64,000 nucleotides of DNA, from IMG/VR virus record IMGVR_UViG_3300025150_000002, positions 128,001 to 192,000 of that record; one strand, 5' to 3'. The stretch comes from a virus (Duplodnaviria > Caudoviricetes). Under the pieces are notes generated by a model. That model was not told the DNA's origin. It did no database searches and was given only the letters and a program-made list of their open reading frames with translations. The translations under genes were made by a program, and so were the position numbers. Of this stretch, positions 184 through 59,300 are shown in pieces; the first letter of the stretch is position 1, and the number at the start of each line of letters is the position of its first letter.

Positions 184-216
184 ATGGAGCTCATGCGTGT
201 ATGGTGCGGCCCATGA
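184..216 (+). pseudogene. Displaced original 5' end of thymidine kinase (MELMRVWCGP*)
   Basis: Matches TK N-terminus MQMLKVFCGPM at 1054; its TGA overlaps the endonuclease ATG at 213. Confidence 0.7.
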
Positions 217-1067
217 GCCACAGTCCAAGGCCGATCATCTATCCTGAGATGGGTCGAGAGCTCGCCTACTTCCTCGGCCTCTTCCTCGCAGACGGCTGTT
301 TCGAGCGCCGAGGCCGGGACTACGATTACAGCACTGTTGCCATCTCTCTGCGCGAGTCGGATGGTTACATCCTTGATGAACTAGGTGAGTGGTTGAGCGG
401 ATACAAGCTGCGTCCTCGGCTGGGACAAATGAAGAGGGGTCCATCGGCATCAGCCGCAGCCGAGGATCGCAAAAGGTTGCGGTTACACTCAAAACTCTTT
501 GTCGAGTACCTGACTTCAGAGCTCGGAATCCCAGTGCAGAACAAGGGCAAGCTTATGGGAATGCCGTCTCAGATCAACAATGAGATGGCTTCAGACTTCA
601 TTCGTGGGGTGTTCGACGGCGATGGTCACATCGCCTATCTTCCAAGTGGAAAGTTCTACGTATGTACTATGGGAGCGCTACTGCTACTGGAGGACATAGC
701 GCGCAAGCTGGCCGAATTGACCAGTGTTAGGCTATTAAGGCCGACAAAGCACAATTCTGGGGATGTTCACATCCTGCACTATTACAGTCGCGCCGAAGCC
801 CACGCCGTGTGCGAATTTCTCTACCAGGACCACCCGAGGTTCTTCATGGATCGAAAGCGCAATACCTGGCTGAGCTTTGTCGAGGAGAGATCATTGCCCA
901 TCAAGCGACCCGTTCGGTGGGATGACGATGAGACGGAAAGACTTATGGCGCTCAAGCAAGATCGCACGAGCCATGGGGTGATAGCCGAGGTCCTGGGTAG
1001 ATCAACCGCGTCTGTGACACAGCGCCTCCACGCCCTGAGAAAGTCGGGAACCTATGCAGATGCTTAA
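213..1067 (+). mobile_element. Free-standing LAGLIDADG homing endonuclease with C-terminal HTH
   Basis: Two LAGLIDADG motifs (YFLGLFLADG, FIRGVFDGDG); ATG 213 preferred over 201. Confidence 0.85.
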
Positions 1068-1659
1068 AGTCTTCTGCGGTCCGATGTGCGCCGCCAAAAC
1101 CACCGGGGCACTACACGCGGCACGGCGCTATGCCCGTCATGGGAAGCGCGTGGTCTTGATAAGACCGGCCGGTAGTCGCCGTGCTCACGAGGGCGATCCT
1201 GAGGCTCTGTCGACCAAGAATGGTGAGTCGTTTCCTAGCTTCGACGTAGAGCGGGTCGAGGACATCTTCGAGCGCTCACGGGGTGCAGACGTAGTCTGGC
1301 TCGACGAGCCGAACCACTTCAGGCACGAGTCTAGGTTATTGCACATCATCCCTGAGATAAGAAGGTCGTCCATTATCCTTGTCTCCGGTCTAGGGGCCAC
1401 ATCAGAGCTAGAGCCCTTTGGAAGCTCAATGCCGTTCTTTCTTGCTACGGCCGATGATGTGCAATGGAGGTCGGCAGACTGCGACCTCTGCCAAACCCAC
1501 GGTACAGCGACAAGGAGCCTCTACATCGGAGAGGCTCCTAAGTCAGGTCAGTTGAAGGCCGGTGGAGCGGAGAGCTATAGACCCGTGTGTCCGAAGTGCT
1601 GGACGTCCGCAACGGCGCTCAGCCCATCAGAGCGATGGGCCGTGTTCGCCGCGTCCTAG
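1054..1659 (+). CDS. tdk: Thymidine kinase
   Basis: CGPMCAAKT P-loop, LDEPNHF Walker B, GLGAT, Zn-binding CxxC pairs, GGAESYRPVCPKC. Confidence 0.88.
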   Translation: MQMLKVFCGPMCAAKTTGALHAARRYARHGKRVVLIRPAGSRRAHEGDPEALSTKNGESFPSFDVERVEDIFERSRGADVVWLDEPNHFRHESRLLHIIPEIRRSSIILVSGLGATSELEPFGSSMPFFLATADDVQWRSADCDLCQTHGTATRSLYIGEAPKSGQLKAGGAESYRPVCPKCWTSATALSPSERWAVFAAS

Positions 1660-2328
1660 TCCTCATCCTCGTCGTGGATCAGGCGATAGCCGATAGCCTT
1701 ATCACCGACGCTCTCATCGGCGAGCCTGGCCTGACGGGCGCTCTGAATCGGAACTCCCTTGTTCCTCAAAGAGTTCACCTTCGTCGACACGTGGTCGGCT
1801 GCGGGTAGGGCACCCATTCGGACCAGCAGCTTCGGCGTAGTGAACATCGGCCACCGCTGGATGAGGATGTCCACGAACTGCTGCTCCTTCTCGGAGAGAT
1901 CTCGTGTGGGCGTGAACGACCCGGGGTAGCCCTTCGCCTTGGCGGGGCCGGAGGCGTTGGTCCGCTGTGCGACCTTCTGCTTCTTGGCCGGAGGCTTCTT
2001 GGCCGGAGGCTTCTTGGTCGACTTCTTGGCGGCCACCGCCTCCTTCGGCTTCGCAACGGCGAACTGGTCCGCCTGCTTGTCCACCTGCTTGTCACGAGAC
2101 ACCACGACCAGTCGCTCCAGGTCGGCGCTGAACCCGTGGATCTCCGACTGCTGGTCGATGTAGTCCTCTAGTGTGCATAGGACGTCGAGCATCCTCGCCG
2201 CTCGGGCCGCCGCAGCGTCTGAGAGCTGCGCCGTCAGCTCGGCGATGACGGCCGCGCTCTCCTCATCCTCCGAGACGAACTGGCGAAGAGCCAGCAGGGT
2301 GTCACGAGTGCTCATGTACTTGTTCACG
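1656..2328 (-). CDS. Basic DNA-binding protein (coiled coil, KKPPA repeats, C-terminal HTH-like region)
   Basis: GGAGG RBS before GTG 2328; Lys/Pro/Ala repeats; the ORF-track start at 2465 overlaps the methyltransferase and is unlikely. Confidence 0.6.
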
Positions 2329-2329
2329 A

Positions 2330-3184
2330 TTATTCCTCCGTGGGGGTTGGGGTGCCTGACAGGTCGTTTATACCCAAGGCCCAACACCTCCGAAGTGCGG
2401 CAATGACGCCTTCGCTCAAATCGTAACCGAGCGACCTCATTCCGCGACTGGAAGCCGCGTAGCACGTCGTTCCTCCGCCTACGAACGGGTCGAATACCGT
2501 TGATCCGGTCGGAATCCCGCTAACAGTTATGAGCTTTACGGCGAGCTCAAGAGGAAATTCGTGCCTGTGCATCTTCTTGGTCGTCGACCCAGTCGTCTCA
2601 TACGGCAAGTACCAGATATCGCCAGGACAATGAACAGCATCAGATGCGCTTTTCCACCGCTTGATGTTCGTCTTGTCGGCGTAGGCGACGCCCACACCCT
2701 TGGCTTTTCTGTTGAGCGGAACGGCGCTCTTCTCGGGTTGCTTGATGAAGCAGATCACGTACTCCCAGCAGTAGTTGAGTAGGTGGTCTGAGTTGATCGG
2801 CTGGAAATGTCCCCGCGATACCACCTCAGTTCGCGCCTTGTTCCCACAGGACTCGCATTTCTCGACCCATCCGCCCACAGCGATGGACTTGACCCAGATG
2901 ATCGTCTGGCCGGGCGCCAGTTGACCGCCTCCTCCAGCAAGGATCTCTCGTTGAACATCGAACGGTCTATCGAGCTTCTCCTTGATCTGCCCGAAGATCA
3001 CGTAGGCGCGGCCGCCCGGCTTCAGGGTCCGGGCGAACACACCACCCAACTTACGCATAAGCTCATCGGTGTAGCCGTTCCTCTTGAAGTAGGGTGGACT
3101 GGTGATGATCAAGTCACAGCTGAGATCCTGAACCTCAGGACAGCCGTCTGCCACATCACCCACGTAGAATGAACCTTTAGCCAC
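2330..3184 (-). CDS. N4/N6 DNA methyltransferase, beta class
   Basis: ITSPPY (motif IV) N-terminal, HRHEFP, FDPFVGGGTT (motif I) C-terminal; CxxC insertion. Confidence 0.88.
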   Translation of the reverse strand: MAKGSFYVGDVADGCPEVQDLSCDLIITSPPYFKRNGYTDELMRKLGGVFARTLKPGGRAYVIFGQIKEKLDRPFDVQREILAGGGGQLAPGQTIIWVKSIAVGGWVEKCESCGNKARTEVVSRGHFQPINSDHLLNYCWEYVICFIKQPEKSAVPLNRKAKGVGVAYADKTNIKRWKSASDAVHCPGDIWYLPYETTGSTTKKMHRHEFPLELAVKLITVSGIPTGSTVFDPFVGGGTTCYAASSRGMRSLGYDLSEGVIAALRRCWALGINDLSGTPTPTEE

Positions 3185-3277
3185 GGGAGCACCTCCGAGT
3201 TCTCATACTACAGGCCTACTCGCCGGAGTACAAGTCCGCACCCGACGATTCGTGTAGGATCCAGACAGGAGTAAGAG

Positions 3278-3607
3278 ATGGGCAAAATTAGGAGCGGACT
3301 AGAGGCCGGACGTTACGCTTACAGCGCACACTCACTCCTACTATCGGGCGACATCGTAGAGGTGTTTATCGGCAGGTGGGAGACCACGTCCGAGACCTCT
3401 CGCGTCTTGAAGAAATACCCGATAGAGGAGACAGTTGATGAGGGTGAGGTGCTTTGCACGATCAAGCTCCGACGCCCCATCTCACTAGACGAGTATCGAG
3501 AGGTTCACCGACCAGAGATCAGACCGATGGTCCGCAGCGTCGGTGCGGACGTCTCGATGGTCATGCTTCCGGCCAATATGGTCTGCACCATCCCAGATTC
3601 CATGTAG
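3278..3607 (+). CDS. Hypothetical protein
   Basis: AGGAG RBS, first gene of a + operon. Confidence 0.6.
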   Translation: MGKIRSGLEAGRYAYSAHSLLLSGDIVEVFIGRWETTSETSRVLKKYPIEETVDEGEVLCTIKLRRPISLDEYREVHRPEIRPMVRSVGADVSMVMLPANMVCTIPDSM

Positions 3608-3616
3608 GAGTTACGT

Positions 3617-3862
3617 ATGAGCGATATGCCCGAGCCAACCCGCATCAAGGTGTCTTTCGGCGTCGACGTCGACATCAAGTTACTGAACGAAATCAAGGCG
3701 CGGCTTGAGAACCTACGTCCTGGGTCGGTGGACTACTGCGTGGAGTGGGACAGGCTCAAGGCCCACTACACCCTTTTCCAGTCACGGCTCGATGGGGAGT
3801 GCTCGGCCTACATGAACATCGCCAAGGAGCAAGCTCGTCAGCTATTCGGCCTCTCCGGGTAG
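3617..3862 (+). CDS. Hypothetical protein
   Basis: AGGAG RBS, operon context. Confidence 0.6.
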   Translation: MSDMPEPTRIKVSFGVDVDIKLLNEIKARLENLRPGSVDYCVEWDRLKAHYTLFQSRLDGECSAYMNIAKEQARQLFGLSG

Positions 3863-3900
3863 AAGTAGAGGACTAAGGACGCACCCCTAGAAGGACGAAC

Positions 3901-4410
3901 ATGAGCGGTAACATCGGAGTGGAGATGACGGTCCTCCGTCCAGAGGGGCGAGATGACTTGATGAAAGGCATGGTTCTCAGGCGAATTCGAGATGGTGCAC
4001 CCCTAACCCGTAGCCAGCTCGACGTCGCTATCGAGCAAGACATCATCGAGATCCAGCGCCAATGGCGTCAGTTCGACTTCGAGGCCTACACTGGTGTGGA
4101 CCTGGATACCTTCTACAAGGCCATGATGGTCGGGATGCTCCTGAACGAGCGACAGGTCGACGAGAGCACCTCGGTTTACGAGCGCGGTCAGCTTGCAGGT
4201 GAGTTCGAGGCTGGTCTCTCTGACGATATGGAGTGGTTGATCGATTCGCTCCCAATGTCGACGCGTGGGTTCTTCGACAAGCTGAAGCAGAACCCGGAGC
4301 GCGAGATTTCTGCCCAGGAGTTCCTGGACAGTCTCGACAAGACGGTGGTCGAGGATCACCGCAACAAGCTCAAGGGCCCCGACATCTCCGACCACCAGCT
4401 TCGCGCCTAG
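3901..4410 (+). CDS. Hypothetical protein
   Basis: 169 aa ORF with RBS. Confidence 0.6.
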   Translation: MSGNIGVEMTVLRPEGRDDLMKGMVLRRIRDGAPLTRSQLDVAIEQDIIEIQRQWRQFDFEAYTGVDLDTFYKAMMVGMLLNERQVDESTSVYERGQLAGEFEAGLSDDMEWLIDSLPMSTRGFFDKLKQNPEREISAQEFLDSLDKTVVEDHRNKLKGPDISDHQLRA

Positions 4411-4416
4411 GAGCTC

Positions 4417-4650
4417 TTGGTGTTCCAGGTAAACGACCGAGTCAGAAAGCGATTCTGCTTCGGAGGGACCTCGAAGCGCTTCAACCCTGAGGGTACCGTT
4501 GTCGGCATCAACGGTAGGTGGATCCACGTCTTGCACGACAAACCAGTGTACCCTCAGGGTATGGTAGCTGCTCAGCCAGATAGGTTCGACTATCTGGCTG
4601 AGGAGCTAGAGCACATCAATCCGCTGTTACGGATTGCCTTCGAGAACTAG
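4417..4650 (+). CDS. Small SH3-like hypothetical protein
   Basis: AGGAG RBS then TTG; FQVNDRVR...GTVVGI pattern; ends NPLLRIAFEN. Confidence 0.55.
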   Translation: MVFQVNDRVRKRFCFGGTSKRFNPEGTVVGINGRWIHVLHDKPVYPQGMVAAQPDRFDYLAEELEHINPLLRIAFEN

Positions 4651-24981: not shown

Positions 24982-25170
24982 ATGTCTTCTACCCTAGATC
25001 AGCGTATCCGAAGCGTCGAAGCTATCCTGGGCTTCGAACTTCGCAGCTACCAAGACCAGGCCCTTCGGGCTTTAGGTGCCGGGAAGAACGTCATCCTTCA
25101 CGTTCCAACTGGTGGCGGGAAGGAAGGCTACTTTGTGCTAGACTCTCTTTCAGAGGAGGTCGGTGTATGA
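24982..25170 (+). CDS. Truncated duplicate of the RecQ-like helicase N-terminus (62 aa)
   Basis: GGTATAAT promoter and GGAG RBS; RSYQDQAL...VILHVPTGGGK; ATGA overlap with the helicase. Confidence 0.7.
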   Translation: MSSTLDQRIRSVEAILGFELRSYQDQALRALGAGKNVILHVPTGGGKEGYFVLDSLSEEVGV

Positions 25171-28100
25171 GCCCGATAGAGGGTCGCATTGAGTCGGTGG
25201 AAAGGCTTCTGGGATTCCAGGTCAGGTCATACCAAAGGCAAGCCCTCACAGCCCTGGGTCAGGGCAAGAGTGTGATTCTTCACGCTCCTACAGGCTGCCA
25301 CGCGCCTGGTCAGCTGATTCTGATGCACGATGGCTCGACCAAGAAGGTCGAGGACATCAAGAAGGGCGACCTTCTTATGGGGCCCGATAGCAAGCCCCGT
25401 CGCGTTACTAGGCTGATTCGCGGTCGCGGTCGAATGGTCAAGGTCCACCCGAAGAAGGGCGAGCCGTTTGTGGTCAACGAGGATCACATCTTGACGCTCG
25501 TCCGGACCGGCGTGGTCAGGACTCCGTCTGATGGTTCCAGGAAGCGTCGAGACTTGGGAGGTGAGCTCATCGACGTCAAGGTCAAGGACTGGGAGACCTG
25601 GTCATTGACCCAAAAGCACATCCACAAGCTCAAGCGTACAGGCGTCACTTTCCGTAGTCGAGCGCCACTCCCATTGGACCCATATACGCTCGGCATCATC
25701 ATCGGAGATGGGTCTATCAAGGACGGTACTCCTGGGGTCACCACCGCTGATTCTGAGATCGAAGAGGTTCTTGTGGCCTGCGCTGAGCGTCGGGGCCTTT
25801 ACATCAGAGAGGAGGTTAAAGCGGGAAATGCGGCTACGACCTATCGCTTGTCTTCTGGGCACCGGAAGCAAAGGGGCCGTGCCGGCGGAACGAACTCACT
25901 GACTAACGATCTTCGCCAACTCGGTCTCTGGGGCAAGGGTAGTTCGGACAAGTTCATTCCGGGGACCTACAAGGTTGCTTCCAGAAAGAGCAGACTCGAT
26001 CTCCTCGCAGGGCTCATCGACGCGGATGGCTATCTACATCACAACAACCACGTCCTAACTACTGCTAGCGAACAACTCGCAGCAGACGTTGCTTTTGTCG
26101 CCCGGAGTCTTGGGTTCGCAGCCTATATCTACACCACCTCGAAGAGGTGCCAGACTGGCTACGAGGGCGACTACTTCAGGGTCTCTATTACTGGCGACAA
26201 CTCCATCATCCCTTGCAGGCTTGAGAGGAAGACAGCCTCTCCGAGAGGCCAGGAGAAAGACCCTACGAGGACGGGCTTCACGCTTGAGGATGTTGGAGAG
26301 GGAGAGTTCTACGGGTTCTCCCTTACCGGTGATGGTCGATTCCTGCTCGGTGATTTCACCATCACCCACAACAGTGGTAAAACCGTGGCCTTCCAAGGTG
26401 CGCCATACGTGTCTCCGCACCCGGGGATAACGGTAATCCTCTACCCTCTTCGCGCCCTGGTGAAAGACCAGTCGCGACGGTTCAGCGAGCTTGGGCTCCC
26501 CAGCGTGACGCTCTACGGTGAGACTCCGACCACCGAGCGGGCCGCAATCTACGACAAGATCCTCTCAGGCTCTACCAAGATTCTGCTCACGACGCCTGAG
26601 TCCTTCGACATGAACAGGAAGTTGCAGGACGTCCTCAGGCAGCGCGGCGTGTCTGTTTTGACCGTCGATGAGGCTCATGCCTATGAGGAGTGGGCTGATG
26701 GATTTCGGCCCACCTACCGTCGGGCCGGAGCCGTCGCGAGGAGTGTCGGCGTCAAGCAGTTCCTGCTGTGCTCCGCCACTCTTACCGGTAAGGGCTTCCG
26801 AACCGCCTGCGACACCATCGGAGTGTCCAACTGGACCATCGTTCAGATCCCTCCACTGCGCTCGAACTTGATCTACAGGGACCTGAGCCAGCCTGAGAGC
26901 GAGATCCTCTGTCGGGCCGTAAGGGGCGATGGGCTGGAGGCCCCCGGGATCGTATTCTTCACGACCGTCAAGCGTCTGGAGGAGACGGCGTCCTTCGTTG
27001 AGACAAAGACTCGCCGGAAGGTGCTTCGTTATCACGGCGGCATGGCCGGCAAGGCGCGTCGAGAGGCACAAGAAGAGTTCATGACCACCGATACCTGGAT
27101 CTTTGCGACCAAGGCATTCGGTATGGGAATCGACAAGGACAACATCCGGAACATCATCCACTGTCAGTTGCCGAGCTCGGTTCTGAGCTACGCGCAGGAG
27201 TGCGTTCACGGCGACACGCCGGTGATGACGTTGAACGGAAACCGCCCAGCGCGAGACATCAAGGCGGGCGACCAACTGGCCGGCTACGACCCGGTTACTG
27301 GTGAGGTGGTTCCGGCAGTCGTTAAGGAACTCTACCAGGGCAAGACGGGTGACTGGCTCGCCGTTCGGACCTCGGCTGGTGATGAGATTGTGGTGACGAA
27401 GAATCATCCGTTCATAGTGAACGGTGGTGAGGTCCGTGCGGACCAACTCAAGGTCGGTGAACGCTTGGCGACGCTCAGCAGTTCCGCTCAGGTTGACCGT
27501 CCAATGCTTACGGCCGACTGTCTGATTGCCGATCAGACGTTCGCTCAGGTCGAACCTGGTCTTATCGATGCTCTTCGAGACAAGCTGTCTCCGACCGAGC
27601 TCGGTCAGATGTTCGGACTCTCTCGCCACCACGATTACTCCAGCTATCGTCGTGGTAAGGCGATCAAGCTCTCTGGACTGCAGGCCGCCGGCGACGCTGC
27701 TGGTATGCCTCGGCAGCAGATCTATAGTCGCGTTCTTGCGCTGAAGTCCCGGAGTGGGAAGCCTGTTCGACTGCCTCTCACGCTCGATGACGCCGAACTG
27801 GGGTGGTTCGCCGGTATCGTGGCGACTGACGGCTACATCTACCGGTCGGACAAGTCAGGGTTCGGTAGTTGGAAGATCAAGCTCACGAATACGAATCACG
27901 CGATCGTTGACAAGTTCGCCGGAATCGTGAAGCGGTTTGGACTTCACTGCCACTCTTACATCAGGACTCATCGATCTGACGCGTTGTCGAAGCGCCCGGC
28001 TCACTGCGCCGAAGTTTCGAGCCCTGTGCTCTGCGACCTACTCAACCATCTCGGTATCCACGATGGTCGCAAGAGCACGACCGTGTCTTGTTCTGAAACC

Positions 28101-29435
28101 GCGCTGAGTGCTGGAAAGCTGTTCAAGGCCGGCTTTGCGGCGGGTGTCATCGATGGCGACGGGAACCTGAGTCCTCCGAGGAGCAGCAAGCCACAGGGTA
28201 AGGTGCGGTTTCACACCGCGTCCTGGCGCTTTGCATCGTGCTTCGCCAAGCTCCTCCATAGTCTTGGTATCCACGTTCGGTTGTCGACCGAGGACTACTT
28301 AGACAACGCGCACATCATGAAGTGCTCAGTCGATTCCGGCTACAATGGCGAGATCGGGCGTTTTGAGTCGCTGCGGCGGTTCGCGGACTCCGTTGCCCCG
28401 CATCTGGTCAAGCGGATGTTTCCGGTCAAGCTGATGAGCACGGATGCACGCGAGAGCATTGGACCGATCATCGTTTCCAGGGTCATCGAGATCCGCGAGC
28501 TCAGCACGGATCTGCCGGAGTCGACGTTCAACTGGCGTGTGGAGCCGCACCATCTTCTCTGGACCGCGAACACGCTGACTCACAACTGCGGAAGAGCTGG
28601 TCGTGACGGTTACGAGTCCAACTGCTTCTTGACACAGGAGGAGCACGGCCAGTCGGCCCACTTCCTCATTGATATGAGCGTGCCGTCTATCGGGCATGTT
28701 AGGAAGGTGTGGAACGTTCTGCAGGTCATCGCGCTCGACTGGCCCGGTTGGTTCGAGGTTGATTGGCCGGATGTGGCGGCCCGAACCGGTCTGAGCCTTC
28801 CGGCTGTTCAGGCCTGCGTCAGCTGGCTTTTCACCGGGAAAATGATCGAGAAGAAGCAGAAGCGGTTGGCGTGGAAGTTCACCATTCATGACGAGTCCGA
28901 CGCCAAGGCGATCAAGTACAAGCGGAAGACCCCAGAGCTCCTCGATGCGCTTCGTGGAGAGGCGATGGTCGATCAGGGGCCCGCTGTGTTCGAGCTCAAG
29001 CCAGACGTCTTGTCCGAGGTAGTTGGACAGCACTTCTCCAACTGGCAGGCCAAGCTTAGGAAGATGAACGAACTTGACATCATCCGGATCGAGGAGCCCC
29101 CGAAGGGGAGATCCAGTTACCGGTTCCTGCACGGCTCGTTCCACTTCGCCCAGGGGCAGAAGCAGTTGGAGAAGGCCCGGTCCAGTGCCTTCGAGCGGCT
29201 GGCAGCCATGCGAGACCTTCAGTCGTGTGCGGCCCACAAGCGTCGAGACTTGATCGAGGACGCGATCTCTTTGAAGCTCCCTCCCATGGAGGGCCTGGAG
29301 ATCCTAGACACCGATCACACCGAGCCGGACCACACCGCCGAGCAGAAGGTCACCAAGCGACCTGTCATCAAGGCGGCGAAGCTAGCAGATGATGATCCGT
29401 TTGCCGAGGACGACGAGTTCATCGTCCCCTTCTAG
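25167..29435 (+). CDS. RecQ-like DNA helicase with two inteins
   Basis: HAPTG[intein]SGKT, YPLRAL, TTPES, VDEAH, FRPTY, ATKAFGMGIDK, YAQE[intein]CGRAGRDG. Confidence 0.9.
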   Translation: MSPIEGRIESVERLLGFQVRSYQRQALTALGQGKSVILHAPTGCHAPGQLILMHDGSTKKVEDIKKGDLLMGPDSKPRRVTRLIRGRGRMVKVHPKKGEPFVVNEDHILTLVRTGVVRTPSDGSRKRRDLGGELIDVKVKDWETWSLTQKHIHKLKRTGVTFRSRAPLPLDPYTLGIIIGDGSIKDGTPGVTTADSEIEEVLVACAERRGLYIREEVKAGNAATTYRLSSGHRKQRGRAGGTNSLTNDLRQLGLWGKGSSDKFIPGTYKVASRKSRLDLLAGLIDADGYLHHNNHVLTTASEQLAADVAFVARSLGFAAYIYTTSKRCQTGYEGDYFRVSITGDNSIIPCRLERKTASPRGQEKDPTRTGFTLEDVGEGEFYGFSLTGDGRFLLGDFTITHNSGKTVAFQGAPYVSPHPGITVILYPLRALVKDQSRRFSELGLPSVTLYGETPTTERAAIYDKILSGSTKILLTTPESFDMNRKLQDVLRQRGVSVLTVDEAHAYEEWADGFRPTYRRAGAVARSVGVKQFLLCSATLTGKGFRTACDTIGVSNWTIVQIPPLRSNLIYRDLSQPESEILCRAVRGDGLEAPGIVFFTTVKRLEETASFVETKTRRKVLRYHGGMAGKARREAQEEFMTTDTWIFATKAFGMGIDKDNIRNIIHCQLPSSVLSYAQECVHGDTPVMTLNGNRPARDIKAGDQLAGYDPVTGEVVPAVVKELYQGKTGDWLAVRTSAGDEIVVTKNHPFIVNGGEVRADQLKVGERLATLSSSAQVDRPMLTADCLIADQTFAQVEPGLIDALRDKLSPTELGQMFGLSRHHDYSSYRRGKAIKLSGLQAAGDAAGMPRQQIYSRVLALKSRSGKPVRLPLTLDDAELGWFAGIVATDGYIYRSDKSGFGSWKIKLTNTNHAIVDKFAGIVKRFGLHCHSYIRTHRSDALSKRPAHCAEVSSPVLCDLLNHLGIHDGRKSTTVSCSETALSAGKLFKAGFAAGVIDGDGNLSPPRSSKPQGKVRFHTASWRFASCFAKLLHSLGIHVRLSTEDYLDNAHIMKCSVDSGYNGEIGRFESLRRFADSVAPHLVKRMFPVKLMSTDARESIGPIIVSRVIEIRELSTDLPESTFNWRVEPHHLLWTANTLTHNCGRAGRDGYESNCFLTQEEHGQSAHFLIDMSVPSIGHVRKVWNVLQVIALDWPGWFEVDWPDVAARTGLSLPAVQACVSWLFTGKMIEKKQKRLAWKFTIHDESDAKAIKYKRKTPELLDALRGEAMVDQGPAVFELKPDVLSEVVGQHFSNWQAKLRKMNELDIIRIEEPPKGRSSYRFLHGSFHFAQGQKQLEKARSSAFERLAAMRDLQSCAAHKRRDLIEDAISLKLPPMEGLEILDTDHTEPDHTAEQKVTKRPVIKAAKLADDDPFAEDDEFIVPF
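25296..26372 (+). mobile_element. Intein (359 aa) with LAGLIDADG endonuclease, in Walker A
   Basis: CHAPG...NEDHIL...LGIIIGDG...LAGLIDADG...FTITHN|S. Confidence 0.92.
27201..28586 (+). mobile_element. Intein (462 aa) with LAGLIDADG endonuclease, in helicase motif VI
   Basis: CVHGD...TKNHP...FAGIVATDG...AAGVIDGDG...TLTHN|C. Confidence 0.92.
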
Positions 29436-34206: not shown

Positions 34207-34289
34207 GCCAGGCCCCGGACGATCATAGACCTGACGTCCATCAGAATGCGGCCCAGGTGGTTCTCACCCTCTCCCTCGCAGACCCCCCA
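34203..34289 (-). pseudogene. C-terminal remnant of a NADAR (YbiA-like) gene
   Basis: WGVCEGEGENHLGRILMDVR; GTGA-coupled to the next gene. Confidence 0.65.
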
Positions 34290-34290: not shown

Positions 34291-34647
34291 CTAATCGGGT
34301 GCATGCCTGCCACTCCAGCCCTTGTGCGCACGACGTCTTCCATTTACTACTTCGCTCATCTTGAACGGACTCAGGTTGTGGTTGCGGCAATGTGCTCTCA
34401 TGTTTGTTACCTGGCTTTCCTCTCCATCAGGGCCGATGAGCAAGTAAGTTTTGGCGGTCGCCCTCAAAGCGTTAGCGTAGGCGAGCGGGGGTAGCTTCCT
34501 GCCCTTATAGAGATCGGACAACTTGCGATTCGTAGACTCGGGTCTGGGCTTTCCCTTATGAGCCTCAGATAGTTGACGCCTGTGAGAGTCAGACAGTTTT
34601 CTGCCGGTTAGGGCGGCAGAGATCTTTTGCTTTGTCTCCTCAGACAT
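34291..34647 (-). CDS. NUMOD3-repeat protein (homing endonuclease remnant without a nuclease domain)
   Basis: SEETKQKISAALTGRKLSDSHRRQLSEAHKGK; ends RAHKGW. Confidence 0.7.
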   Translation of the reverse strand: MSEETKQKISAALTGRKLSDSHRRQLSEAHKGKPRPESTNRKLSDLYKGRKLPPLAYANALRATAKTYLLIGPDGEESQVTNMRAHCRNHNLSPFKMSEVVNGRRRAHKGWSGRHAPD

Positions 34648-40963: not shown

Positions 40964-41483
40964 TCAGACGATGTCTACCCCGTGCAGGAGAGCCGACTTG
41001 AGATCGTGGTAGACCGGAATGGGGTCTACGGCGTCCGGTAGACCCAGATGTCGGGCGAATGTATTGACGCCACTGGCGATCGACTCCAGGTAGCGGTTCT
41101 TCGGAGCGTTCTCGGGGAATCCGAGGACCATGCGCTCAGGATAGATGGCTGCCATGAAGCCGAACTCGACGTTGGTCGTGAAGGCTGGCATAGTCTCAAG
41201 GTTTCGAGGGACCCAGAAAAGCACGCGCTCGGCGCGTCCTAGCGCGGCCCACTCCCACTCGACCTGACGCTTGTAGTCTCCACATCAGCCCCAGTCCTCT
41301 GTCTGAGGCACGAAGGCGTGGCCGTCGTAGCCGGCGCTACGGAGGATCTCCAGGGCCTCCTCTCTCCAGCCGTTCACATCACCTGATCTGGGTGTCGGTC
41401 CAGCCAAGAAAATGCTGTTTGGCGTGACGTGCCGGGGGGTGGGAGACGGGCGGCAAGGTTTGGGGCGCGAAGACGATCCTCAC
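40964..41483 (-). pseudogene. Nucleoside 2-deoxyribosyltransferase-like gene with frameshift and nonsense codon
   Basis: SIFLAGPTPR...WREEAL...QVEWE...LFWVPR...TTNVEFG; frameshift near C-run 41434-41439, TGA at 41285-41287. Confidence 0.75.
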
Positions 41484-42201: not shown

Positions 42202-42510
42202 ATGACGACCGAGACGATTACCGAGATCGAGACTAACACCCGTCTCATTCCACCTTGGAATGTGGTTCTACTCAACGACGACGACCATTCCTACGACTAT
42301 GTCATCGTCATGCTTTACGCCGTATTCGGCTTTCAGCCGGAGAAGGGTGTGATGCACGCTAAGGAGGTGGACTCGGTCGGTAGAACCATCCTGATCACCA
42401 CCAGTCGAGAGCATGCTGAGCTCAAACAGGAACAATGCCATAATTTCGGACCAGACCCCCTTGTTCCACGCTGCAAGGGTCCGATGACTGTGATCATTGA
42501 GCCGGCGTGA
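42202..42510 (+). CDS. clpS: ATP-dependent Clp protease adaptor ClpS
   Basis: PPWNVVLLNDDDHSYDYVIVML...EVDSVGR...HAELKQ...IEPA. Confidence 0.88.
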   Translation: MTTETITEIETNTRLIPPWNVVLLNDDDHSYDYVIVMLYAVFGFQPEKGVMHAKEVDSVGRTILITTSREHAELKQEQCHNFGPDPLVPRCKGPMTVIIEPA

Positions 42511-42517
42511 GGGTCCC

Positions 42518-43156
42518 ATGAGGTCTACCCCTGTAGCTACTGGCGACCGGTTTGGTCGGCTGGTTATTGAGTGTGAGCTCCCAAGAAACAAGCACGGTCG
42601 GCGAATGTTCAAGTGCCGTTGCGACTGCGGAGGGTATCGAACAACCCGCCAGGACAGCCTGGTGACAGGAAGGACCACGTCATGTGGTTGTAAGCATCGC
42701 GAGCGAGCAAAGACTCTTGCCAAGACTTACTTAACGGCGCACGGTCACCACGGGTCGCCAGAATACGTCTCCTGGCGGGCGATGAAAACCCGCTGCTTAA
42801 ATCCGAACCACGAGTGGTTTGATCGTTATAGCAAGCTAGGGATCTGCGAAGAGTGGATCGAAGACTTCGAGAAGTTTCTCTCCGATGTTGGTCATCGTCC
42901 ATCATCGGAGCACACGCTTGAGCGCATCGACAACAACAAGGGTTACTTCCCCGGAAATGTGAAGTGGGCTACTCGCAAGGAGCAGGCCAGGAACACACGT
43001 TCGAGTCGAATTGTGACGGTCGAAGGCGTGTCCCGAACTGTCACCGAGTGGTCCGAGATTACGGGAGTCCCTGCGACGGCGATCTTCAAGAGACTTGATG
43101 CTGGACGCGATCCAAAGGAGGCTGTCTGGAAACCTAGCCGGAGGAAGCGCAAGTGA
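42518..43156 (+). mobile_element. HNH-type homing endonuclease
   Basis: RFGRL, CRCDCG, TTSCGC, WRAMKTRC, TLERIDNNKGYFPGNVKWAT. Confidence 0.85.
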
Positions 43157-43290
43157 GCGAGAATTCCTCCGAATATCGTGAGACTCTGGCCGCCGAGGTT
43201 ATGAGAACGCGCCGGGTCCACGCGTTCGGGCCTGATCCTCTTGTACCTCGGTGTCGTGGATCGATGACCTGCATAATCGAGCCGGTATGA
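43153..43290 (+). pseudogene. Displaced duplicate of the clpS 3' end
   Basis: HAFGPDPLVPRCRGSMTCIIEPV* vs HNFGPDPLVPRCKGPMTVIIEPA*. Confidence 0.8.
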
Positions 43291-51581: not shown

Positions 51582-52130
51582 ATGGCCTCGACAACTTCCA
51601 TTCCCGCTGAAACCACCACTCGCTGTGATGCCAGGAAGATAAAGGTCGGCGACGTATTCTCGCGACACTCCTTCGGCAAGGTGACGGCAATCGACCGGCA
51701 CAACGGTCTGCTGACGATCGAGAACAGCAACGGCAACAGCTGGAACATCGGACCAGAGATCGTCGAGCTGGAGTTCAGCTTCGCCGAGCAGTTCGAGACG
51801 GAGGAGACCGTCAGCCGCACCCGGCTAATCGAGCTCATGACCGAGCTTCCTCGCACGGCGATGACCATCAACTTCAACAAGAAGCCGGACCCCAAGGCAA
51901 TCGCCAAGGCCCTGGAGGGCGGCAAGGGCAGCGAGAGCGCTAAGGCCTGGACCGCCAAGGTCGACAAGCTCATCGCCGGCGATGAGCGGACTATGGTCGG
52001 TTACCACACGCTCAGTTTCGATGAGCACCGCCGTCTCCGCTTCCAGGAGAGCGGCAGCGGGCAGCGGCTGGTAGATCCGAGAACACTCAACTGGATGATC
52101 AGTTGCAGGACGAAGTTTGTGGTCAAGTAG
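51582..52130 (+). CDS. Conserved phage hypothetical protein
   Basis: GGGTATAAG promoter, GGAG RBS. Confidence 0.7.
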   Translation: MASTTSIPAETTTRCDARKIKVGDVFSRHSFGKVTAIDRHNGLLTIENSNGNSWNIGPEIVELEFSFAEQFETEETVSRTRLIELMTELPRTAMTINFNKKPDPKAIAKALEGGKGSESAKAWTAKVDKLIAGDERTMVGYHTLSFDEHRRLRFQESGSGQRLVDPRTLNWMISCRTKFVVK

Positions 52131-52782
52131 CTCGGCGCCGGTTTTTTCTGGGGGGCTCTGTCAAGGCCCTGCAGAGTGACCAGTTTTCGAGCCGATAGTC
52201 GAGGGCGTTAGGCGCGATGCCTAAACGGCGGGCCCACTCCGCCTTCACAAGAGTTTCCCCGGTGATGGGATGAGTCAGTTCTACATTGTCGCGACGGTTT
52301 TGGGCCTGCTGTTGGGCTGTTGCCCAGCGCAGGTTTCCGGGCTCATAGCCCAGTGCGTTGTCGATGCGGTCCAGGCTCATCCCATCGGGCCGTTCCCCGA
52401 GATTGGTTTCAACCCAGTTAAAGAACTTCGTGAAGTCGTCGGCCCACTCGCCGTGAAATGTGATGCCGCGACCGCCGTAGTAATTCCACTCACGTCTCTG
52501 GGGATTAGTGCAGGCGTTCTTTCTGCTCTGCCAGAGCGAGTAGAGGTAGTGGCGTTGGCCGGCGACAGCGAAACCGTGTTTCACGTGTCCGCTTACCACC
52601 TCTGCGCGGTAACACCCACAGGATATGGATTTTCCGTGACGTAGGTTACTGAGGTACACAATCCTCTCAACGCTGCAGTCGCAGCGAGCTTCAACGCGCC
52701 GCTGGCCGGGGCCGTCAACGTCTCGTATTACGGTCCAGTGACCGAACTTTGTTCCAGGGGTTATAGACAATCGTCTAGCCAT
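52123..52782 (-). mobile_element. HNH-type homing endonuclease (paralog of 42518-43156)
   Basis: KFGHWTV, ARCDC, SISCGC, YYGGRGI, SLDRIDNALGYEPGNLRWAT; own TTGACG-17-TACCCT promoter. Confidence 0.85.
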
Positions 52783-52833
52783 TTGGCTCAGGGTATCTCG
52801 AACCAATTACATCGTCAAATCAGGGAGGGCGAC

Positions 52834-54059: not shown

Positions 54060-54100
54060 TTCACTCCTGTAGCCCCGAAGTGGGCTTCTGACGTCCGTGG

Positions 54101-54628: not shown

Positions 54629-55191
54629 TGGGCTACGAGACTGAGATTTACCTGGTAGACAAGGGCCATGACGACTGCCTCGTCCAGTGGCAGCCTGCCT
54701 CAGAGCACTGGTACACCGCGACCAGGAACCCGCTCGACCGGTTGGTCGAGGCCACCGGCGAGGTCAATAAGGACCCGCTTCAAGGGGTTCCGGCCGACGC
54801 CCTGTTCTCGGATGGCGGAGTGATCATCGCTTCGCTGAGGATGGGTACGATCGGGAGTGGTGGCCACGACGATGGAGAGCTCGACGACTTCTTCGCCAAG
54901 AACCGCGAGAGGCAGAAGATGGAGAAGAAGTTCCTCCTCCTTAAGTGGATGCCGAGCGACTGCCTCAACACCAGCGAGTGGCCCGATGTCACCGACCCCT
55001 ACGGCGACCCCTACGTCCTGCACGACGCCCAAGGCACCCTGGATGCCCTCAATCGAACCATCGAGCGCAAGCTGAAGGAGAACGATGGAGTGCTGTATAC
55101 GATCGATCGGCGCTATTCCATGTTGAAGGCCATCCTCGTTCCTTTCATCGCTGGATGGCCGAACCCAGCGGTGGTGACACGTGGCTACTGA
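54628..55191 (+). CDS. Hypothetical protein
   Basis: TAATG overlap; internal NPLDRLVEAT. Confidence 0.6.
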   Translation: MGYETEIYLVDKGHDDCLVQWQPASEHWYTATRNPLDRLVEATGEVNKDPLQGVPADALFSDGGVIIASLRMGTIGSGGHDDGELDDFFAKNRERQKMEKKFLLLKWMPSDCLNTSEWPDVTDPYGDPYVLHDAQGTLDALNRTIERKLKENDGVLYTIDRRYSMLKAILVPFIAGWPNPAVVTRGY

Positions 55192-55489
55192 GCGAGAGGA
55201 CAACAAGCTGCTTCAGGCGGTCCGCGAGAGTCATTGTGACCGAAAGGACCGCAAGCACGCCTGCGCCGGTGTCATCACCATCTCGCCGCAGGGCTACAAG
55301 CTAGACTGCAACTTGTGCGGAGGTCTCGACTACAAGACCGAGCCCTGGAGTAATCAGGAGAGCGACGGGCTGGAGATCGTCAAGGCAGTGCTGCGGACCA
55401 TCGGTCTCGACTGGTCAGCCCTGTCCGCAGATATCCAACTAGAGCTCATCAAGACGGTGAGCAAGATGCTCATCAAGAGGGGAGAGTGA
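55181..55489 (+). CDS. Hypothetical protein
   Basis: Operon context; Cys/His cluster. Confidence 0.55.
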   Translation: MATEREDNKLLQAVRESHCDRKDRKHACAGVITISPQGYKLDCNLCGGLDYKTEPWSNQESDGLEIVKAVLRTIGLDWSALSADIQLELIKTVSKMLIKRGE

Positions 55490-55490
55490 T

Positions 55491-55796
55491 ATGACGGACG
55501 AGCGCAACTACCACCGGGAGCGCGAGGAGCTGGTTCCTCTCACCGACTCCATCCTCGACGTCTGGACCACACATTTCGGCGCTCTGAAGAGGGCTGCCAT
55601 CGAGATCCGATTCAGCAGGTTCTGGCTGGAGCGTATGGATTCAGACCGACGGGCCGCAGAGGCTGCTCTCGCGGAGTCGCTCCGACGCGAGGCGGAGCTG
55701 TCGGCAGTCCTTAGAGACATCCGAACCACCCTCTGGTCGTCCAACGATCGCGAGACCATGGTCGAGATCGATGAGAAGATCAAAGACATCTTGTAG
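55491..55796 (+). CDS. Hypothetical coiled-coil protein
   Basis: GGGGAG RBS. Confidence 0.55.
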   Translation: MTDERNYHREREELVPLTDSILDVWTTHFGALKRAAIEIRFSRFWLERMDSDRRAAEAALAESLRREAELSAVLRDIRTTLWSSNDRETMVEIDEKIKDIL

Positions 55797-55804
55797 GGAT
55801 CCTT

Positions 55805-56329
55805 ATGCCTAAGCACGTCGAGCGCGAGCGGTTTCCTGTTCCTGGAGCGTTCGGACTAGAGCGGTCCAAGGAGCGATCCGAAGAGAACTGGCTACGCCGC
55901 ACCCAGTCTAACTGGGACTACCTCAACCGTGCCGGTTCCTACCAGGATCACCTCTACATCTACGTTGAGGAGGAGTACGGTTACCGTAGCCACGTGTGGA
56001 CCTATCCTGGAACCGCGCAGGAGCTAGTCGAGGACTGGTGCGCTGGGCTCACTCCCTGGCAAGGTAGGTTCAAGGGAGATTTCAAACAGGTTGATTTCGT
56101 CACGTCAGGTGACCATCGAGGACGTGATTACCCAAGAGCTATGAACCTTGTCCTGGTTCAGACCGGTGAGGTCTTCCCGGGCATCTACGAACTAGATGAT
56201 TTTGATGGGGAGTGTCACATCCACGAGGATGATGACGCTTATCTGAAGGTGGGTTTCTACAGAGTGCGTGGACGCGACAACCCTGAGGTCGAGTTCCGGG
56301 TGCTAGACGCTCTGGCTTCGATTAGATGA
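55805..56329 (+). CDS. Hypothetical protein
   Basis: Ends RVLDALASIR. Confidence 0.6.
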   Translation: MPKHVERERFPVPGAFGLERSKERSEENWLRRTQSNWDYLNRAGSYQDHLYIYVEEEYGYRSHVWTYPGTAQELVEDWCAGLTPWQGRFKGDFKQVDFVTSGDHRGRDYPRAMNLVLVQTGEVFPGIYELDDFDGECHIHEDDDAYLKVGFYRVRGRDNPEVEFRVLDALASIR

Positions 56330-56882
56330 AGCCCATGCTGCCCGAGTCAACACCCGCCTCGGTGTTCTTGATGCCGGCGTCGGGGGTTGAGACCAGGGGC
56401 ATGCGGTCGAGTTCGTCGAAATCGTCACCCGCAGCGCTGCCGTAGCGTTGGAGAATCAACTCCTTGGTCTCGTCGTCGATCAAGCTCTCAAGAGCTGGGA
56501 AGACCTTGACCTCTTCGTCCTCAAGGTGGCGCTCTAGCCCCTCCAGGATAACGAACACCAGCTGACGAGCTGGTTCTTCGATGTTCGTAATCCTTGCTGA
56601 AAACAGGAGTTGCGACAGCCGAGTAAGGCGGGCCATCGTCTCGTCGTGTTCTCGGAACAGCTCGGGGAGCTTCTTGTTGTCAGCCTTCAGAAACTTCATC
56701 CCGATCAGATAGAGCACCGACTCTTCCTTCAGGGTGTGCGGCCGCGCCACATCGATCATGGCCTGAGCGGTGTGCCGCATGCCAGGCAGATCGAAACGCT
56801 CAGTGAAAGCGCGAAGCTCCCCGGCCAGCGTCCGCAGCTTGGCGTGGTCCTTCAGCAAAGGCTCAATGATGCTCTTAGCCAT
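56322..56882 (-). CDS. Hemerythrin HHE cation-binding domain protein
   Basis: LLKDH, HTLKEESVLY, FREH, HLEDEEVKVFP. Confidence 0.8.
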   Translation of the reverse strand: MAKSIIEPLLKDHAKLRTLAGELRAFTERFDLPGMRHTAQAMIDVARPHTLKEESVLYLIGMKFLKADNKKLPELFREHDETMARLTRLSQLLFSARITNIEEPARQLVFVILEGLERHLEDEEVKVFPALESLIDDETKELILQRYGSAAGDDFDELDRMPLVSTPDAGIKNTEAGVDSGSMGFI

Positions 56883-56941
56883 GCGGGTCTCCCACTAGGA
56901 TCTGACACCACAGGATAGCATCACAAGGACTTGCGATCGAC

Positions 56942-57121
56942 CTAAAGCTCGGCAACTAGCCTATCGAGAACGTTGGCCTCCTCATTCACGTAGATCTGGT
57001 TGTTGGCCACGATGATGAAGCCAACGTCATCGTCGTTCTCCCCCTCCCAAGTCACCTTGCCCTTGAGTACGTAACCCCAAGGGGTTAGGAAGTTGGTGAT
57101 GAGGTACTGCAGCCACTTGAC
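56942..57121 (-). pseudogene. C-terminal remnant of a conserved phage gene, in frame after the HNH stop
   Basis: VKWLQYLITNFLTPWGYVLKGKVTWEGE...NVLDRLVAEL*. Confidence 0.65.
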
Positions 57122-57610
57122 CTACGTCCAGTTATCACCCTTGGCGATGTGTCGGATCATCGTCGGGCTCACACCGAACCGCCGTGCCAGAGCCCTCTTC
57201 GCGGTCCCCAGTTCCAGCTCATATCGAATGGCTGCTACATCGGATGATGTGAGCTTTCGGTTCCTAGCGTTATTCCCTCTGGGAACGCTCCGACGCTTGC
57301 AGTTCTCTGAGCGAGTTTCCCACATAAGGTTTTCGATGCTGTTGTTCGTCGGGTCGTCATCTAGATGACTGGCCTCCAATCCGTCCGGGCACGGACCAAC
57401 GAATGTCTCTAGCACGGCTCGATGGAGAAGTTTCATCACACGGCCGGACGCGCTCGACAGTGTGAGCTGGGTGTAGCCTCTCTTGGCCAGATAGCGTCCT
57501 TTCAAGACCCTTACACGGGGTTTTCCTCGCGGCCCGATCAGACTGCGCACTCGGCCCTCTGGGTGGACCTCGTATCGTCCTTCAAATCCAGGAAGCGGCG
57601 TCCATGTCAT
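57122..57610 (-). mobile_element. NUMOD4-HNH homing endonuclease with C-terminal HTH
   Basis: WTPLPGFEGRYEV, LHRAVLETFVGP, ASHLDDDPTNNSIENLMWET. Confidence 0.88.
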
Positions 57611-57642
57611 GGGCTAAGTGTAACACCGAACTTCTCGTCTAG

Positions 57643-58392
57643 CTAGTTATCGAAGGCGATGACGACTCGGACCCGATCCGGCGGGCCGAGCTTCACCATG
57701 TCTGAGATGGTTTCGATGAAATCGGACACGAGGTCCCGATAGGTTCGTGGCAGCTCGATCCCACAGAAGATGCCGAGCTTCTCCTGCTGCTTGGATATTC
57801 GGTTCTTCCGCCACCTGACGAACTTCTTGGTCTCCTCGGTGAGGAGCAGCAGGGTCATCTCCTCTTCGGTCACTTGTCGGTGGAACCCTTCTGGAAGACC
57901 CTTGTGCCACATCGATCGGCCGCCGGTGTATTCGGCGTGATCCAGACCCGGAGGGACCTTGCCGGTCTCCTTCCACTCCAAGTAGTCGTCCGCGAAGAGT
58001 GCCATCGTCTCGTGGCAGGCGACGGCGTCCCAGTCTGTGTCCATGAGCTCTTGGACGTTAAACCAGGTGTGACCGTGGTAGTCGGAGTAACCGCCCATCT
58101 CCTCGTGTGTGGGGATGTCCTTGAGAGTCGCCTTCGAGACGTCGTGCGGGACCCCTCTCCTGGCGAAGTGGAGAGGCTTGATGTGGAAGTTCCGGATGTC
58201 CGCCAGCACGGCGAACAGGACGTAGTTTCTGTTGCTGAGCGCGTTCATGTAAGACGGCCGCCGCGCGTCCATCTCGTCGTAGTTCCAGCCGTTCTTCTCT
58301 CGAAGCCGCCAGTAACGGGTCTTGGAGTCTCGCAGACCCCACCGACCGTTCTTGCCCTTCACCTCGATGCACGGGTGCGCGTCTGTTCCGAT
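57643..58392 (-). CDS. Conserved phage protein (start probably ATC 58392)
   Basis: GTDAHPCIEVK, RNYVLFAVLADIRN, DYHGHTW, RVVIAFDN. Confidence 0.7.
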   Translation of the reverse strand: MGTDAHPCIEVKGKNGRWGLRDSKTRYWRLREKNGWNYDEMDARRPSYMNALSNRNYVLFAVLADIRNFHIKPLHFARRGVPHDVSKATLKDIPTHEEMGGYSDYHGHTWFNVQELMDTDWDAVACHETMALFADDYLEWKETGKVPPGLDHAEYTGGRSMWHKGLPEGFHRQVTEEEMTLLLLTEETKKFVRWRKNRISKQQEKLGIFCGIELPRTYRDLVSDFIETISDMVKLGPPDRVRVVIAFDN

Positions 58393-58399
58393 GATGTCC

Positions 58400-59197
58400 C
58401 TACCTTTTGAGAAGCTCCAGGAACCGGTCGTGCTTGCGTTTGAGAAAGGGCCCCTCTGAGTACATCCAGAGACACAGCCTCTCTATCTGCCGATTCCCCT
58501 CCACGCAGAGGGAGTGAATGCTCTTCATCTTTCTGATATTGCCTCTTACTTCTACCGCCCTGGCCATCCGAGCCTGAACGCTTCTCAAGAATTCCTCACG
58601 ACCCGCCATACACCATCGCCATCGCTTGTAGTTAGGCGAGTTTCTCGGTACGACATGGTAGATCGAGCCGTCCCCATCGAAGTAACCACGGATAAAGTGA
58701 GCATCGAGTGTCTGAGGAATCTGGTTTGGATAGACCAGCTTGTGGGTTTTACTCTGCACCATGCCTTGCGCGGCGAGTGCTCGACTAAGCGCCACGCTTT
58801 TGATGCGACAAGCGTAGATCCTCTTGTGGCCTGGACGATCGCGGTTTAAGAGCTTCAACGTCTTCTTAGGGCAAAGTTCGTTACGGAACAGCACAACCAG
58901 TTCGTGATCCGTGAGGTCTAATGAGACACATGAGCCCTCAATGTTGCAGCCATCAGCCATCAGCAACCCAAACAAGTAGGCCTTTGCCGGCGTGTTGATC
59001 GTATCGAAGTAGTCTTCGATGATCTCGTGTTTGCGCTTGTGCGACCACGGGGTCCTGGGTTTGAACCCATCTAACTTGAGCAACCTATTCCGAACAGTGC
59101 CGAGATCGACGCCATAGAGCGCGCCGATAGTTTTGTAGGTCAGGCCGGCGTTGTAATGGTCGAGGAGAACAGTCGAGTCAAGGTGTTGATGTGACAT
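58400..59197 (-). mobile_element. Free-standing LAGLIDADG homing endonuclease with N-terminal HTH
   Basis: YFDTINTPAKAYLFGLLMADG, FIRGYFDGDG; TTGACA-17-TAGTGT promoter 6 nt before ATG. Confidence 0.88.
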
Positions 59198-59220
59198 TTC
59201 TCAACACTAGGATGAGCTGA

Positions 59221-59247
59221 TCAACCTGTCAAGGCGTCGGTTCCCAA
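59221..59247 (-). pseudogene. Displaced original 5' end (MGTDA) of the 57643-58392 gene
   Basis: AAGGAGGT RBS then TTG GGA ACC GAC GCC, matching ATC GGA ACA GAC GCG at 58392. Confidence 0.65.
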
Positions 59248-59300
59248 TTGCCACCTCCTTCTCTCTTTCCTTCTACCCGTGAGAGCGGAGATGCATCGAG

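Follow-up and report, generated by a model that had tools for sequence, protein, structure and literature searches.

In a stretch of 64,000 nucleotides of Caudoviricetes DNA (hereafter the window, i.e., bases 128001–192000 of the 203,521-bp viral metagenome record IMGVR_UViG_3300025150_000002; 58% G+C), the thymidine kinase gene tdk, the gene clpS and a gene here called MGTDAH share one layout: a stranded native gene end, then a nuclease gene, then a replacement end that has diverged and is continuous with the gene body, or the mirror image of this order. The same layout was observed at three genes outside the window, def, dNK and a tail-tube gene, and it is thus present at 6 of the 12 free-standing nuclease-like genes of the record. 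We consider it likely that these loci are gene-end-replacing homing cassettes, in which a free-standing endonuclease gene is combined with a short piece resembling, in diverged form, the end of the target gene next to it, with cleavage, immunity and homing being inferred from sequence. All five loci named in an earlier sequence-only reading of the window (tdk, a NADAR remnant, clpS, the EKF/VKW gene and MGTDAH) were found in place, and its claim that most free-standing nucleases lie in gene motifs with displaced or duplicated ends holds for five of the six nuclease ORFs (open reading frames) of the window, the exception being 52123–52806 on the minus strand.

At tdk, the duplicated end is the 5′ one. 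A mini-ORF, MELMRVWCGP followed by a stop, parallels the start of the working gene, MQMLKVFCGPM, with a raw score of 40 that corresponds to only about the 99th percentile of random pairs. In L027, a relative without the nuclease, tdk begins almost base-for-base as the mini-ORF does and continues as ...CGPMCAAKTT. The nuclease ORF (201–1067) starts inside the mini-ORF, at an ATG in position 201 or 213, and its 3′ end overlaps the tdk start. Two LAGLIDADG_3 hits were obtained for this ORF, at 24.3 bits (above the cut-off) and 17.8 bits, and a single one for the nuclease ORF at MGTDAH (58400–59197), at 20.3 bits and under the cut-off of 22.5, together with a match to phrog_4645 at E 9e-37. LAGLIDADG motifs are discernible in both proteins (LFLADGCF and FDGDGHI in the former, LLMADGCN and FDGDGSI in the latter). 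The working tdk start resembles a more distant sublineage (P0144, P0148) and the body resembles MRVW-type relatives, these segments being too short for a tree. Homologues of tdk called from MCAAKTT were considered as marks of nuclease insertion at the same junction and were discarded, since in L026 and L028 the missing ten codons lie directly upstream and such starts are therefore gene-calling artefacts.

At clpS, the duplication concerns the 3′ end. A second copy of the last 23 codons and stop (43219–43290) lies downstream of the nuclease gene and gave the highest flank score of the genome (106). The protein encoded at 42518–43156 had no significant Pfam hit, and neither had the def nuclease; both were identified with PHROGs. 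No nuclease is present at clpS in the relatives L022–L024, where clpS overlaps the next gene by ATGA. In the window, the homologous next gene is overlapped in this way by the copy downstream of the nuclease gene, the junction being the one found in the empty allele L023. An identity matrix of the 72-nucleotide clpS end could not by itself separate the native from the foreign end; the ATGA junction could. L025 carries a homologous HNH gene at the same site, with a relic of its own beginning at the same His codon. When the relics of the window and L025 were compared with each other and with a working allele, 14 synonymous versus 2–3 non-synonymous codon changes were counted, a pattern at odds with long neutral decay since one old insertion. 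It agrees with repeated invasion, with each relic having been a working gene end until recently; selection acting on the relic would be the alternative. The clpS arrangement was found in at least 10 independent assemblies.

At MGTDAH, whose homologues begin MG(T/C)D(A/S)HP, the duplicate is no longer than a start codon with its ribosome-binding site and the four codons that follow (59233–59260 versus 58378–58400). In the copy upstream of the nuclease gene, a TTG start with a strong ribosome-binding site is followed by the codons for G, T, D and A and then by unrelated sequence and a stop; the copy downstream of it, in front of the gene body, has a second, diverged ribosome-binding region and the codons for G, T, D, A and H, with ATC in the start position. 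Empty alleles were found in L029–L031, and in L029 the ribosome-binding site, start and GTDA codons are as in the stranded relic. L032 carries a LAGLIDADG homologue (73% identical) at the same site, with the same right-end sequence including the ATC. The presence of this nuclease is discordant with the similarity of the hemerythrin, since L032, which is occupied, is closer to the empty L029 than to the window. As to the start itself (58390–58395), ATC stands where relatives have ATG and is preceded by AAGGTAGGGACATC, the same being seen in L032 (1090–1110). In L032 the next gene, of the phrog_38666 family (MGYTTEFEG...), apparently also starts at ATC, after AAGGAGGGACATC (1838–1850). Translation in this phage group may therefore sometimes begin at ATC.

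The translated sequence around the start of every called gene was then compared with that around its end (flank scan). The median score was 27 over 216 genes; for 600 random pairs, the 99th percentile was 39 and the highest score 48. Outside the window, the nucleases at def, dNK and the tail-tube gene scored 78, 60 and 43, respectively; the scores of clpS, def and dNK exceeded those of all 600 random pairs. Scores above the random 99th percentile were obtained for 6 of 12 nuclease-like ORFs (one of them an internal repeat) and for 5 of 205 other genes (p = 3e-6), and no real flanking duplicate was found by the scan among these 205, against the layout at 6 of 12 nuclease-like genes (Fisher p about 1e-5). 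The sequence-only reading had made its proposal depend on flanking duplicates being commoner next to nuclease genes than next to other genes; the strong enrichment therefore removes this ground for rejecting it. Two high scores were set aside: that of 56 around 3901–4410, the best score away from nuclease genes, arises by chance from GC-rich sequence matched out of frame, without an underlying DNA repeat, and that of 55 at genome 106070–106417 is an internal zinc-ribbon repeat and not a flank duplicate.

The replacement concerns the 5′ end at tdk, MGTDAH, dNK and the tail-tube gene, and the 3′ end at clpS and def. At dNK, an HNH ORF continues in frame from the native start (MIPPA...GKFIVVEGNIG), which matches L027; L027 is an empty allele for both tdk and dNK. 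The 3′ relics (window 43201–43290; genome 120668–120760, for def; L025 5981–6070) lie in mini-ORFs whose ATG is a few codons before the homology. The stops of the window clpS and def relics overlap the start of the next gene (ATGA), and the ATG of the def mini-ORF also overlaps the stop of the nuclease gene. At the other side, the nuclease gene start of the 3′ cases overlaps the stop of the hybrid gene or sits a few bases off. At genome 25246–26106 (L005 5246–6106), an endonuclease VII/HNH-like ORF starts with MADLTPQK and the gene directly downstream with MSELTPQN; judging from these starts, which are too short for significance alone, this may be a seventh case of 5′ replacement.

For each of the four loci that have an empty reference, the sequence comparison points to the stranded end as native and to the joined end as the newcomer, because the relics match the empty alleles (tdk and dNK versus L027, MGTDAH versus L029) and keep the native flank junction (clpS, as in L023). 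The opposite assignment would be that of ordinary intergenic insertions, in which the working end is native and the extra copy is a passenger scrap of the gene of a previous host. Structure alone would not tell which copy is native, and the 3′ fragment beside the NUMOD4-HNH gene, having no counterpart at that site in L029, is what such a passenger would look like. L032, however, indicates that the phrog_38666 gene to which the fragment belongs is native to its position. Moreover, the empty allele is matched more closely by the relics of tdk and dNK than by their working ends, the native stop/start overlap with the downstream gene persists at the relics of clpS and def, and the MGTDAH relic sits on the native upstream region including the ribosome-binding site, all of which make passenger scraps quite unlikely.

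A second possibility is that no foreign end is involved, imprecise break repair at nuclease insertion having copied a few target codons, with the copies then diverging in place, perhaps under selection to escape cutting. This is in accordance with duplicates that are short (5–24 codons) and directly abut the nuclease genes, and with nuclease and host genes being equally diverged between relatives. On the contrary, the copies differ at nearly all synonymous sites with the protein kept: at def, nine residues (GTLFIDRLS) are identical and eight of them are encoded by different codons, and at clpS 13 synonymous versus 5 non-synonymous codon changes separate the copies. The earlier statement that the copies differ mainly at third codon positions is thus borne out at clpS and for MGTDA, but not at tdk, where the counts are 3 and 6. 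Moreover, the tdk replacement start matches a natural variant of another sublineage (P0144, P0148), the relic matching the local lineage, and the relics found in the window and in L025 seem in each case to have been functional until recently. Local duplication is thus regarded as unlikely, and replacement by an end from elsewhere is preferred.

The nuclease genes might also lie in introns or inteins, or be skipped by ribosomes, the stranded piece then being a real first or last exon, as could be thought in a genome rich in inteins. The ORFs at these loci have their own starts and stops and are not inside an intron or intein; the host ORFs are complete without splicing, and stops and frame shifts part the relics from the gene bodies. 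Rfam gave nothing relevant to introns at the gathering threshold for the whole window, nor at E <= 1 in three regions covering four of the five loci (the NADAR locus lying outside them). Hidden splicing or bypass is therefore very unlikely. As for chance similarity, or an assembly chimera of two strains, the duplicates of tdk (score 40) and MGTDAH (four residues) are not significant by score alone; against this stand the clpS, def and dNK scores, higher than any random pair, the recurrence of the clpS arrangement across independent assemblies and the same arrangements in the diverged L025 and L032, so that an artefact of this kind is scarcely credible.

A complete host gene with a diverged second end was found at tdk, clpS, MGTDAH, def, dNK and the tail-tube gene, and not at NADAR and EKF/VKW. 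At the NADAR locus, the remnant consists of the last 24–27 codons (24 at 34218–34289) directly after the nuclease relic, with no duplicate end; an intact NADAR gene occupies the syntenic place in L114. At EKF/VKW, the phrog_38666-family fragment has 794 homologues, the best of which (P0229) matches over residues 90–146 of 146. L032 has an uninterrupted 146-amino-acid gene of this family, containing ...AEKFYNYTEWLQYL..., between the MGTDAH gene and the hemerythrin, while the gene of the window lacks about 85 codons at the 5′ end and has neither a duplicate nor a replacement end. The "YVKW" of the sequence-only reading was a misreading, the actual order being W T TAG V K W with the stop taken for Y; the rest of that call was right. 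These two loci are insertions by the same kinds of nuclease into conserved motifs, and their host genes are broken and now decaying. The host gene is destroyed where the replacement end is absent or has been lost, as at NADAR and phrog_38666, which shows the cost of the process. The sixth nuclease gene of the window (52123–52806) has no gene-end duplicate, its best Pfam match being only HNH_3 at E 0.17, and in L029 the genes flanking this site are 11 nucleotides apart.

Under the preferred reading of gene-end replacement, the nuclease would cut an empty target allele inside a conserved coding motif during co-infection, and the break would be repaired from the occupied genome. One broken end would pair with the gene body and the other with the stranded native end beyond the nuclease gene, and by this pairing the nuclease gene and the replacement end would be copied in. 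The recipient's own end would be displaced, thus becoming a new relic, and the host gene would be kept whole without an intron or intein. The intact target site would be gone: at one side of the junction the hybrid gene is recoded, and at the other the relic runs into nuclease DNA. Hybrid and empty alleles differ in sequence at one side of every junction. A 5′ cassette would bring along its own ribosome-binding site and start codon, with translation of the nuclease beginning at the stranded native start or being coupled to it. In a 3′ cassette, the native stop/start overlap that the relic mini-ORF retains would maintain translational coupling to the downstream gene. The homing strategy put forward in the sequence-only reading is upheld in its layout at six genes, in its action at both gene ends, by empty alleles at the exact sites and by the enrichment; it does not extend to NADAR and EKF/VKW, which are not gene-preserving, and what was called systematic amounts to about half of the nuclease-like genes (6/12).

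Several observations weigh against this reading. Two of the five loci first proposed (NADAR and EKF/VKW) display destruction of the gene and not its preservation. Between the sampled relatives, nuclease and host genes are similarly diverged (72–73% versus 65–71% nucleotide identity); there is no excess similarity of the nucleases, and therefore no signature of recent transfer among the sampled genomes. The replacement ends being so short, the argument for their foreign origin depends on few sites, a weakness most marked at tdk and MGTDAH. The ATC at the start position of the MGTDAH replacement end would mean that this gene is perhaps poorly expressed or dead. Finally, the junctions lie in two P-loops, in a D-x-H motif, just past HExxH (def), in QEQC/H.FGPDP and in EKF/Y.Y.EWLQYL (a slash marks the junction, here and in the table), and conservation of the 8-residue junction window is above the protein mean but not top-ranked (ranks 27/95, 61/194 and 20/242).

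The nearest parallels are eukaryotic. WHO elements at the essential yeast aldolase gene FBA1 have a replacement end that gives resistance and a displaced fragment that is the homology arm (Coughlan et al. 2020, PMC7282813); they are regarded as a third category of homing element, "considerably more rare", in an account where phages are unmentioned (Osborne et al. 2026, bioRxiv 10.64898/2026.08.13.744650). As in WHO elements, a free-standing endonuclease gene comes with a replacement end, the old end is pushed aside and no splicing is involved; resistance is known for WHO and would be expected here. WHO elements are nuclear, eukaryotic and meiotic, encode a LAGLIDADG nuclease with a zinc finger, target the 3′ end only of one host gene with pieces of hundreds of bp and form tandem clusters, whereas this phage has at least three nuclease types, at least six host genes, both gene ends, pieces of 5–24 codons and a 5′ form with ribosome-binding site and start codon. 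In fungal mitochondria, gene hybrids with mobile ORFs are described at atp6 of Allomyces macrogynus and at atp6, atp9, cox2 and nad3 of Glomus (Beaudet et al. 2013, PMC3630166). These are alike in having an inserted C-terminal copy, an endonuclease ORF and a native C-terminal relic, with the relic close to the gene of a relative, mostly synonymous differences in the inserted copy, and LAGLIDADG or GIY-YIG nucleases. Only 3′ (C-terminal) organelle cases are covered there, and no 5′ replacement ends, HNH nucleases or phage operon coupling are described in that paper (PMC3630166). The steps proposed above coincide with those of the mechanism put forward for WHO elements, and the layout matches that of the fungal mitochondrial mobile ORFs. 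What is new here is the existence of a 5′ form, the variety of nucleases involved and the close packing within operons.

Among phages, the free-standing nuclease genes of T4 sit between genes, with immunity due to polymorphisms of the neighbouring genes, and their elements are not known to include a duplicated or replaced gene end. T4 genes 39/60 with mobA, and nrdA of Aeromonas phage Aeh1, are genes split by a homing endonuclease. SegF, SegG and MobE of T4 resemble the present nucleases in that a free-standing nuclease cuts a nuclease-less allele within or close to a conserved gene, its spread by repair being accompanied by co-conversion of flanking markers (cf. PMC2790892, PMC2988022). Split genes likewise have a nuclease within the coding region without an intron, but their product consists of two polypeptides or is put together again through trans-splicing or bypassing ribosomes, whereas in this phage a single complete ORF is restored by the replacement end; "fractured genes" with split inteins (PMC2677866) also belong among the split genes. 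Literature searches of open-access papers and preprints, in which absence is no proof, found no description of this layout in phages.

The same flank test was applied to an IMG/VR sample of 80 phrog_374-type HNH loci and 80 related LAGLIDADG loci, 149 of which were usable. Clear duplicates were found in three, two with HNH (L109, L055) and one with LAGLIDADG (L166) nucleases, all at 5′ ends and in conserved motifs; the layout is therefore sporadic in unrelated phages, and the present genome is strongly enriched in it. L109 (1286–2080) has the 5′ replacement layout with an RGYG-motif HNH gene as host, L055 (1302–2090) a duplicated 27-residue start (MHLTDRVSLG.. versus MLVADSVALA..), and L166 (1352–2300) a host gene with a GSQAYGL motif and a score of 134.

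The usual classes of homing elements are introns, inteins and free-standing intergenic genes, and end replacement has hitherto been described as rare and eukaryotic; here a single phage genome holds at least six cassettes, built on LAGLIDADG, HNH-type and other nucleases and acting at both gene ends. We would only tentatively go further and suggest, as a generalisation about as apt to fail as to hold and perhaps slightly more so, that gene-end replacement is a general, family-independent third homing mode of large phages beside introns and inteins, with a hitherto undescribed 5′ form and a 3′ mini-ORF form, the main route into coding sequence in this clade and a cause of continual recoding of the targeted motifs. 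Cassettes of this kind would be a route for repeated recoding and inter-lineage exchange of conserved motifs in phage metabolic genes. The empty alleles of the relatives make the mechanism directly testable, with cut sites predicted within a few codons. For annotation, short orphan mini-ORFs beside nuclease genes would be explained as stranded gene ends.

Table. Features of the window at the loci discussed (positions within the window).
Position	Strand	Feature	Remarks
184–216	+	stranded native tdk 5′ end, mini-ORF MELMRVWCGP and stop (11 codons)	nearly identical to L027 tdk start and P0146 N-terminus
201–1067	+	free-standing LAGLIDADG homing endonuclease gene	two LAGLIDADG_3 hits; phrog_4645 endonuclease, E 2e-22
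1054–1659	+	tdk (thymidine kinase), hybrid; first ~10 codons (MQMLKVFCGP) are the replacement 5′ end	junction GP/MCAAKTT in P-loop
34203–34289	−	3′ remnant of native NADAR gene (WGVCEGEGENHLGRILMDVRSMIV.. and stop), body lost	83% identical to residues 119–142 of intact L114 NADAR
34291–34647	−	decayed homing endonuclease, NUMOD3/DNA-binding part only, catalytic domain lost	positions 288–386 of 574 of phrog_314
42202–42510	+	clpS, hybrid; last 23 codons and stop (42439–42510) are the replacement 3′ end	junction QEQC/H.FGPDP
42497–43156	+	HNH-type homing endonuclease gene	phrog_374, E 5e-63; likely start ATG at 42518, 7 nucleotides past clpS stop
43201–43290	+	stranded native clpS 3′ end (43219–43290) within 29-codon mini-ORF	stop overlaps ATG of next gene (ATGA)
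52123–52806	−	second phrog_374 HNH gene, plain antisense intergenic insertion, counter-example	PHROG HNH E 1e-49
56943–57118	−	3′ fragment, 58 codons (VKWLQYL..AEL and stop), of phrog_38666-family gene	in frame with nuclease ORF, one TAG between
57122–57610	−	NUMOD4-HNH_3 homing endonuclease gene, inserted in EKF/YNY.EWLQYL motif	HNH_3 54 bits, NUMOD4 38.9 bits
57628–57639	−	four-codon relic D E K F of phrog_38666 gene body	directly past MGTDAH stop; short match, read via L032
57643–58392	−	MGTDAH gene, body joined to replacement 5′ end with ATC at start position	junction MGTDA/HP
58400–59197	−	free-standing LAGLIDADG homing endonuclease gene; TAG stop inside carried ribosome-binding region (AAGGTAGG)	phrog_4645
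59221–59260	−	stranded native MGTDAH 5′ end: AAGGAGG ribosome-binding site, TTG start, codons G T D A, then LTG and stop	cf. L029

As to the record itself, no close relative was found in the phage collection, in IMG/VR by peptide patterns or in one metagenome scan. A contig of 368,865 bp carries proteins identical to the ClpS, thymidine kinase and MGTDAH proteins of the window, and one of 358,707 bp is a related phage; the phage genome is therefore probably much larger than the 203-kb record, which would be only part of it. The genome is rich in selfish elements, with several nuclease ORFs standing alone, and no Pfam match to GIY-YIG was obtained anywhere in it. Many LAGLIDADG domains lie within very long ORFs and are probably inteins. 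Thus, an 875-codon ORF with one LAGLIDADG_3 domain (window 10905–13532) and a 1422-codon ORF with three (25167–29435) are probably intein-bearing genes, and at least six further long ORFs with LAGLIDADG_3 occur elsewhere in the genome. A mobile element of a different kind is represented by a 370-codon ORF at genome 96116–97228 (L008 16116–17228) that matches PHROG transposase families (phrog_506, E 2e-17). A nucleoside deoxyribosyltransferase-like gene (window 40964–41407) is split into ORFs of about 86 and 30–40 codons, also in L012, and is a single 137-codon ORF in L014 and L015, strain variants of the same phage.

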